Shown: in pieces, positions 61,721 through 61,907 of the stretch
Numbering within the stretch: the stretch's first letter is position 1
How the letters are laid out: each line of letters starts with the position of its first letter
NCBI GenBank assembly: GCA_964645645.1
Contig: CAZYBC010000006.1
Coordinates: 1-63,224, forward strand
Source of the DNA: an uncultured Pseudomonadales bacterium
GTDB taxonomy: Bacteria > Patescibacteriota > Microgenomatia > UBA1400 > PJMF01
Direction of reading: 5' to 3'
Length of the DNA stretch: 63,224 bases
Notes under the pieces: model-generated
What the model saw: only the letters and a program-made list of their open reading frames with translations
Told to the model about the DNA's origin: nothing
Databases searched by the model: none
Position numbers and translations under genes: made by a program

Positions 61721-61785
61721 ATTTGATTTTATATTTAAGAACACAACAAGCTACGCTTGAATGGTTCTTAAATATAAAATCAAAT
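61721..61785. repeat. Long hairpin element with GCGTAGC apex (family A)
   Basis: Perfect 22-bp arms 61721-61742 and 61764-61785; 21-nt loop reads CATTCAA-GCGTAGC-TTGTTGT on the minus strand. Confidence 0.9.
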
Positions 61786-61840
61786 TACTCAGCCTTTATT
61801 TGAAGGAAGTTTTTGTTCTTGGCAACCATTCTTCCAATGA

Positions 61841-61907
61841 TTTTCTAAATTATTTATGACAACCATTCAAGCGTAGCTTGTTGCGTTGCCAGAAACAATT
61901 TAGAAAA
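61841..61907. repeat. Long hairpin element with GCGTAGC apex (family A), opposite orientation
   Basis: Arms 61841-61863 and 61885-61907 (20/23); loop CATTCAA-GCGTAGC-TTGTTGC is 20/21 identical to its neighbour while the stems differ. Confidence 0.85.

Follow-up and report, generated by a model that had tools for sequence, protein, structure and literature searches.

Patescibacteria have tiny genomes with few known mobile elements, and a literature search returned no paper describing REP elements in them. The described systems closest to the locus reported here are the REP, REPIN and RAYT transposase systems (PMC3116915; PMC3337134); template switching, which creates or repairs perfect stems in one event (PMC8794818); and the mini-hairpins formed by GCGNAGC and GCGNNAGC, which are extraordinarily stable as single-stranded DNA (Hirao and colleagues; reviewed in PMC13037366) and of which phage origins, priming signals and N4 promoters provide known examples (PMC13037366). 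Here, we describe two hairpins downstream of lepA in a Patescibacteria genome that share a tip of this kind but not a stem. We regard it as roughly an even bet (a probability of about 0.5) that both hairpins of this doublet belong to a family of small palindromic repeats that is specific to one lineage and the stems of which are rewritten locally by template switching.

The window, by which we mean the whole stretch of DNA that was analysed (63,224 nucleotides), is AT-rich, with a G+C content of ~34%. LepA similarity (at most 70% identity) assigns it to an uncultured Patescibacteria bacterium of the Microgenomates, Pacebacteria or Woesebacteria type. Of 42 ORFs, 32 terminate in TAA, nine in TAG and one in TGA, so that TGA is nearly unused as a stop codon; recoding of UGA was considered and rejected, as, in spite of the single TGA stop, the long intact ORFs and 220 TGG codons favor the standard code. 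A giant ORF on the minus strand (34237-54093, 6618 aa) contains FHA and TPR matches in its C-terminal 1000 residues and no Pfam match in its N-terminal 1000 residues. An AbiEii-type nucleotidyltransferase toxin (302-1205, minus strand) and its DUF6922 neighbor are likely to form a type IV toxin–antitoxin pair. The doublet occupies the spacer of 209 nt that separates lepA from the next gene, which encodes a membrane protein with a bacterial PH domain (hereafter the PH gene); this spacer contains two hairpins, H1 and H2, and a third unit, U3.

59888-61717, plus strand: lepA (609 aa; TAA stop at 61715-61717), taken from the ORF list, with 70% identity to Patescibacteria LepA.
61720-61786, unstranded: hairpin H1, with 32-nt arms at 61720-61751 and 61755-61786, loop TAC and a perfect outer 23 bp.
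61740-61766, plus strand: apex core copy 1, AAC-ACAA-CAAGC-TAC-GCTTG-AATG-GTT, with GCGTAGC on the minus strand; unchanged in strains V and X18.
61808-61831, plus strand: U3, of which 61808-61826 is the exact reverse complement of the right arm of H2 in strain V and 61813-61831 is a direct repeat of the left arm of H2.
61841-61907, unstranded: hairpin H2 of the window haplotype, with arms at 61841-61872 and 61876-61907 and loop GTA.
61861-61887, minus strand: apex core copy 2, inverted, with GCGTAGC on the plus strand; a diverged orthologue with GCGAAAGC is present in contig L107.
61897-61911, plus strand: derived template-switch tract AATTTAGAAAAGATT of the window strain, which makes the 11-bp outer stem of H2.
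61912-61929, plus strand: extended -10 promoter TGTTATAAT, 6 nt and the ATG of the PH gene (TGnTATAAT-N6-ATG, conserved).
61927-62619, plus strand: PH gene (YdbT/YdbS-like), assigned from the names of homologues and PF03703.

H1 and H2 are hairpins of ~67 nt that lie head to head 3' of lepA, with apices that are inverted copies of each other. H1 starts 2 nt past the lepA stop; above its 23 perfect base pairs lie a 4x4 internal loop and an apical stem of 5 bp (CAAGC/GCTTG). Its DNA fold has an energy of -24.5 kcal/mol (z = -12.2 compared with shuffles). H2 has a similar layout with a poorer stem, in which the outer 11 pairs are perfect and are followed by three mismatches (z = -6.1). For the entire spacer, z is -5.9 for the RNA fold and -8.7 for the DNA fold, again compared with shuffles. 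Both apices are composed of a GC-clamped triloop (GCGNAGC), the 4x4 internal loop and AAC/GTT on both sides. The initial annotation had reported a 23-nt core (61744-61766) that recurs inverted and perfect at 61861-61883, as is indeed the case; the real shared unit is longer and extends to 27 nt with one mismatch (26/27; 61740-61766 versus 61861-61887). In 100 shuffles, no 23-mer was matched even when three mismatches were allowed. The arms of H1 and H2 show no similarity above chance in either orientation (all p > 0.15), and homology of the two stems was rejected on this basis; within the doublet, therefore, the apices are shared and the stems are not, as had been proposed. The accompanying statement that each copy has its own palindromic stem holds for the outer 23 bp of H1, but the long stem of H2 is confined to the window haplotype and is absent in strain V. 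The window haplotype is unchanged in three independent wastewater runs, and the doublet is thus not an assembly artefact. An origin of the spacer from a duplicated lepA 3' end, in which ATTCAAGC..GCTTG, TTGC.AGA.AAC and TTTAGAAAAGA occur in the same order, was rejected since the alignment does not rise above shuffles or control chunks.

The relatives L108, L109, L012, L026 and L029 keep the gene order murJ-rpsT-lepA-PH, or at least lepA-PH, with Pfam domains matched on the LepA orthologues of L108 and L109. In these relatives only 16-32 nt separate the lepA stop from TGnTATAAT, whereas the window contains an extra ~190 nt (H1, U3 and H2) between the lepA stop and the promoter. As lepA adjoins the conserved PH promoter in the closest lepA-linked relatives, the 209-nt spacer is a lineage-specific expansion. 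The initial annotation had proposed aligning the region downstream of lepA to see whether one arm matches an ancestral empty site; neither the H1 nor the H2 arms occur in the 16-32-nt spacers, which is the result that it had itself named as contrary to its reading, and the relatives concerned are distant (~69% protein identity). In more distant relatives canonical terminators directly follow lepA. The PH-gene promoter (61912-61920 in the window) belongs to a TGnTATAAT-N6-ATG arrangement that is kept in the window and in eight relatives; besides the five above, the 6-nt spacing to the ATG holds in L013, L021 and L107. This fixed spacing across relatives indicates that the extended -10 promoter of the PH gene is conserved and that its mRNA is leaderless. 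TGnTAnAAT is found 6-8 nt before many start codons of the window in the absence of a Shine-Dalgarno sequence (e.g. at 9600-9617, 59524-59548 and 61912-61926), and leaderless transcription seems to be the rule across the window genes.

The nearest relative of the PH protein (79% identity) is encoded on the Logan contig L107, in which a Gp49 (HigB-like) and HTH (HigA-like) pair (595-1180) replaces lepA upstream of the PH gene and the 90-nt upstream region is kept. These 90 nt align with residues 61836-61926 of the window, which comprise the left arm, tip and right arm of H2 and the promoter. The L107 tip reads AACCATTTAAGCGAAAGCG, and the 90-nt region has no significant fold (z = -0.41). Since the region contains the apex without the fold, the H2 apex is older than its stem. 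From this alignment we conclude that the tip region of H2 is old and forms part of the upstream DNA of the PH gene, and that the long stem arose later in the window lineage.

A second haplotype, V, was found in runs X4, X6 and X18; the window haplotype is referred to as W. The two are 0.3-6% divergent in a mosaic pattern over 54-63 kb. Across 59914-62732 the divergence is ~5.8% in most of lepA and ~0.3% in the last 400 nt of that gene; it reaches ~9% in the spacer, against ~3% in the PH gene. This pattern suggests recombination tracts. Both apex cores are identical between V and W. At 61899-61911, V and W differ by ten substitutions and one inserted base (10/13 sites; found in two layouts). 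The W version AATTTAGAAAA reverse-complements 61841-61851 without a mismatch (11/11) and matches the left arm of V at 22/23 positions; among random 29-mers of the same composition, an 11-nt reverse-complement match has P = 0.004 and 15 nt is never reached. In the V allele, 61885-61903 reverse-complements 61808-61826 at every position (19/19). The V allele (…AAAAACTGACTGACAATG) is common to L107 (…AAAATCTGACTGACGATG), the shared string being CTGACTGAC(G/A)ATG, and L107 aligns with a score of 95 to V versus 56 to W. As the alternative allele CTGACTGAC of V is also that of the outgroup, the stem-forming tract of W is derived. The tract 61897-61911 thus combines a cluster of changes, an exact reverse complement nearby and a direction given by the outgroup, as expected for a template switch, and we conclude from the three aligned sequences that the outer right arm of H2 in W is a templated copy of its own left arm. 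The proposal that the stem is regenerated from local DNA is therefore borne out for at least one segment (61897-61911, the reverse complement of 61841-61851 and derived with respect to V and L107). Outgroup polarity is fixed for this tract only and the other events are not polarized. In V, a three-way junction involving U3 takes the place of H2, and a third haplotype (X5) carries a hybrid U3/left-arm unit.

U3 was recovered both as a direct repeat and as an inverted repeat in the repeat search. Residues 61813-61831 are 79% identical to 61850-61868 as a direct repeat with a spacing of 37 nt, and the 5' 19 nt (61808-61826) match the reverse complement of the H2 right arm of strain V at 19/19 positions. 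A third unit at 61813-61831 had been described as truncated; the unit is real, but it is better described as a hybrid given the origin of its 5' 19 nt. Since the right arm is homologous to that of L107, U3 would be a copy of the old right arm. The inverted copy is exact, and the copying is likely to have run from the arm to U3.

Two further hairpins in the window resemble the doublet.

8809-8876, unstranded: probable family member with 24-nt arms (96%) and A5 and T6 runs at its edges.
8824-8861: 38-nt unit, TTTATAAAC-GCAATCGCTTCGCTCAAATG-GTTTATAAA, multi-copy.
31172-31234, unstranded: weaker relative with 30-nt arms, loop TTC (GCGAAGC on the minus strand) and a 4x4 internal loop; single copy.

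The 8809 hairpin lies 1 nt after the stop of a minus-strand ORF (8878-9396); this ORF has zero depth in run X4 (strain V), and the hairpin is thus placed at a strain-variable boundary. The 8809 tip matches the H1/H2 core at 21/27 positions, with both unpaired flanks included (AACGCAA … GC-TTC-GC … AATGGTT), and matches the L107 tip at 22/27. A blind scan with the core gave 8809 a score of 19-22, which is within the noise (shuffle maxima of 20-26), and the link to H1/H2 therefore comes from the comparison restricted to the hairpin tips, for which our own rough estimate is p ~0.01; the 8809 apex is probably related to the H1/H2 core. The read depth of the 38-nt unit is 92 versus 7.8 in X1, increases from ~5 to 31 in X2 and is 121-133 versus 11.5 in X4 (~12-fold), and the contigs that terminate in the unit or run through it show at least five different flanks. 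The pairable flanks of the unit are mutually reverse-complementary (e.g. …AAAAAATAAATATAATT-unit-AATATATTTGTTTTTTT…). The abundant 8809 subfamily has ~5-6 copies, in which the proximal 9 bp of the stem are identical and further bases are similar. The initial annotation had considered the tip, rather than the stem, to be the recurring part, and this agrees with the doublet and with the different paired flanks of the 38-nt unit; the lack of shared stems is not general, because the 9-bp proximal stem is common to the 8809 subfamily copies.

The 31172 hairpin starts directly after the stop of a GH18 gene. When the three tips were combined in a covariance model, the model recovered this hairpin with 25.9 bits (E = 0.014, a weak match). 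The depth is flat over this hairpin, as expected for a single locus. In run X6 a minor strain (31180-31256) carries changes at 31210, 31218, 31219 and 31223, all of which are in the right arm of 31172. All of the tips carry GC-N3-GC, with one strand reading GCGTAGC (H1 minus, H2 plus) or GCGAAGC (8809 and 31172, both minus) and L107 reading GCGAAAGC. These motifs suggest that the mini-hairpin at the apex may act as a nucleation point for fold-back. Across the window GCGNAGC occurs 19 times (9.9 expected) and GCGNNAGC 21 times (9.7 expected), an approximately twofold excess that lies mostly inside genes. The window also contains a second palindrome family, in which the arms are shared (ATTT[T/C]GCAGTAAGT[C/T]TATTA, at 33620-33664 and 59357-59399); one copy is 10 nt upstream of the murJ start and the other lies between convergent genes.

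In the reading that we prefer, the conserved part of the family would be the hairpin tip, consisting of the GC-clamped GCGNAGC triloop, the unpaired bases and the AAC/GTT clamp. The H2 apex would be old and would travel with the promoter-upstream region of the PH gene, whereas the long stems would be young and local, with template switching during replication continuing to rewrite them. A polymerase would leave its template at the stable apex hairpin, copy either the arm across from it or an inverted segment close by, and then return; the mini-hairpin itself would nucleate the switches. The outer H2 stem of the window strain is one product of this process, as the comparison with V and L107 shows; U3 would be another, with an exact inverted copy and a presumed direction; and the inverted second apex and the perfect 23-bp stem of H1 would be a third. 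The outcome would be two hairpins that share a tip and not a stem. The direction of only one templated event is fixed by the outgroup; the inverted duplication of the apex, which would make the H1 tip an inverted copy of the H2 tip, and the origin of the H1 stem are presumed by extension. Template switching is local and cannot bridge tens of kilobases; dispersal of the 38-nt unit thus needs another mechanism, for which the candidates are gene conversion, insertion into terminator loops and a RAYT-like enzyme encoded outside the window.

The elements could alternatively be true REPs or REPINs: a RAYT-type (Y1/HUH) transposase, present as a single copy elsewhere in the genome, would mobilize them as single-stranded DNA hairpins, and the inverted doublet would replicate as a REPIN-like unit. 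The 8809-type unit is a short extragenic palindrome with multiple copies (~12-fold depth and at least five flanks), and the doublet layout of two inverted 27-38-nt units that are 72-94 nt apart is of the right kind. However, the H1/H2 core is present as two adjacent copies only; no H1/H2-type core was found elsewhere in the source metagenomes, the depth is flat over 61708-62000 in X1, X2 and X4, and a search of the window for a second doublet gave none. The doublet is thus single copy in the three metagenomes and does not behave as a repeated REPIN-like unit, and the search for more doublets that the initial annotation had suggested gave none in the window. The same applies to the suggested search for a cognate nuclease or transposase, as no transposase, RAYT (Y1/HUH; including Y1_Tnp), integrase, reverse transcriptase or nuclease was identified among the ~45 ORFs of the 63-kb window. 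Furthermore, conservation lies in the tip and not in the stem, and the hairpin feet show no evident conserved tetranucleotide. Neither subfamily occurs beyond chance in GTDB (185,579 species genomes), JGI metagenomes or IMG/VR contigs; exact and degenerate searches of these collections returned unrelated coding sequences or single chance matches, and the core was rejected as a widespread element. The label of REP doublet is an analogy, and we consider a REP/REPIN system unlikely as the whole explanation, while noting that it is compatible with local template switching if it supplies the dispersal step.

Integron attC sites are defined by RYYYAAC ... GTTRRRY core sites and a nearby integrase; on inspection, the hairpin feet do not fit the R''/R' core sites and the window contains no integrase. 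A MITE with a target-site duplication was rejected: the 9/10 repeat at 61716-25 and 61904-13 lies partly in the W-derived tract and is absent in V and L107, and with one copy in a derived tract this 10-bp flanking repeat is not a target-site duplication. Whole-element homology of the MITE type is likewise absent, given p > 0.15 in all comparisons of the H1 and H2 arms.

A stronger version of the tip-centered view is that a GCGNAGC-centered unit of 27-38 nt spreads to sites after stop codons and seeds a new palindrome from the local flanks by fold-back or template-switch synthesis. We hold this version to be doubtful. If it were true, the family would be recognizable by its hairpin tips alone, with a mode of propagation, in a reduced Patescibacteria genome, distinct from those of REP/RAYT and MITEs.

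Insertion of a small unit into the loops of pre-existing post-stop terminators, the stems of which would then be old terminator stems, accounts for the positions of H1, 31172 and 8809, each of which starts 0-2 nt after a stop codon. It is also in accord with the A5 and T6 runs flanking 8809 in the manner of a bidirectional terminator, with the canonical terminators right after lepA in distant relatives and with the ordinary terminators of the window (e.g. 6231-6272). The 8809 copy, the only one in which a U-run follows the stem, has the appearance of a functioning bidirectional terminator. This is not so for H1, H2 and 31172: their stems are AT-rich, extend over 20-32 bp and have no U-run, and a terminator scan flags only the 5-bp apical mini-stems, with H1 followed by ACTCAG and H2 by GATTTG. 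In addition, the outer H2 stem is demonstrably derived and templated, L107 contains the apex without a stem, and no hairpin separates lepA from the promoter in the closest lepA-linked relatives. Loop insertion is therefore improbable as the origin of these stems.

Still less probable is a functional RNA element (a 3' UTR stabilizer, RNase III site or terminator) maintained by selection, with a protein-binding apex and compensatory changes in the stems. The hairpins sit at the 3' ends of genes, the unpaired apex bases are conserved between copies and the stability of the fold far exceeds that of shuffles. However, the apex is found in either orientation with respect to the gene preceding it, so that the RNA loops would differ (UAC or UUC versus GUA or GAA). 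A search for RNA runs that contain the locus gave none. No Rfam 15 family reached the gathering threshold, with only generic miRNA-precursor-type hairpins far below it, and no terminator U-run follows H1 or H2. The V changes in the right arm of H1 (61775 T>C and 61781 C>T) weaken pairs without compensation. The total folding energy of V is typical of random substitution at the same sites, a test that is confounded by composition; selection preserving the structure between strains was rejected on this result, and the structure appears to be mutation-driven with no sign of selection. The structured block between the lepA stop and the leaderless PH promoter could protect the 3' end, act as an insulator or be neutral.

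The comparison of W and V also shows a period-3 pattern, in which eight of the nine isolated substitutions within 61718-61893 fall at third positions of an ORF at 61761-61859. A young small ORF overlapping the hairpins (ATG at 61761; 32 codons in W, extended to 56 in V by TGA>TGG) would explain the concentration in one codon phase, with 4-5 of the changes being synonymous (P ~0.003-0.01 by our estimate); a real gene in the same comparison has a similar bias (~74% in one phase). It has no homologue among 5.8 billion proteins, its frame is broken in L107, the L107 differences show no periodicity, its composition is that of a random AT-rich frame and neither a promoter nor a Shine-Dalgarno sequence precedes the ATG. 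The ORF was consequently rejected as a gene and is kept as a highly improbable explanation of the period-3 pattern only. The weakest alternative is an invertible switch, in which the 27-nt inverted cores recombine to flip a 94-nt segment; inverted repeats of 27-38 nt do flank a short segment beside a promoter, but no strand-changing joints were found in contigs of seven runs (from which rare variants cannot be excluded), the window has no recombinase and the segment is very short, and we give this idea almost no credence.

Should local rewriting around a stable tip be the correct explanation, the locus would provide a natural population-level case of the origin of a long perfect hairpin, with ancestral, intermediate and derived states in public metagenomes, in which an old unstructured sequence with a stable mini-hairpin acquires a 30-bp stem by templated copying. 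In addition, a Patescibacteria genome would be shown to contain a family of palindromic repeats at dispersed positions. Repeat finders based on arms would miss such a family, since the conserved part is the tip and not the stem. If stem growth is seeded by the tip at every locus, it becomes directly testable how REP-like elements and terminator-like hairpins originate.

Among known systems, REP/BIME/REPIN elements (PMC3116915; PMC3337134) are similar in being short imperfect extragenic palindromes at gene 3' ends, and the 8809 subfamily is, like them, multi-copy; confinement to one lineage and the occasional inverted doublet are further shared features. They differ in that here the tip is conserved and the long stems are copy-specific, the doublet is single copy, the copy number is low and the window has no RAYT. 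MITEs (Correia/NEMIS, RUP and ERIC) are also small non-coding intergenic palindromic insertions, but the present units are much shorter and have neither a target-site duplication nor whole-element homology. Intrinsic (bidirectional) terminators share the position of the hairpin at the stop codon and, in the case of 8809, the A and T runs, in contrast to the 20-32-bp AT-rich stems without a U-run of H1, H2 and 31172, which also look unlike the ordinary terminators of the window, such as 6231-6272. The apex motifs of H1, H2, 8809, 31172 and L107 match mini-hairpin DNA (PMC13037366) exactly, with the difference that here they are placed at the tips of chromosomal palindromes. Template-switch (quasipalindrome) mutation according to the Ripley model (Mönttinen & Löytynoja, 2022; PMC8794818) likewise involves a cluster of changes between close haplotypes, a derived allele that reverse-complements a neighbor and a perfect stem made in one step, and further inverted copies lie within ~100 nt here; the present locus differs in that several such events would have occurred in one 190-nt spacer, around an apex that recurs at distant loci.
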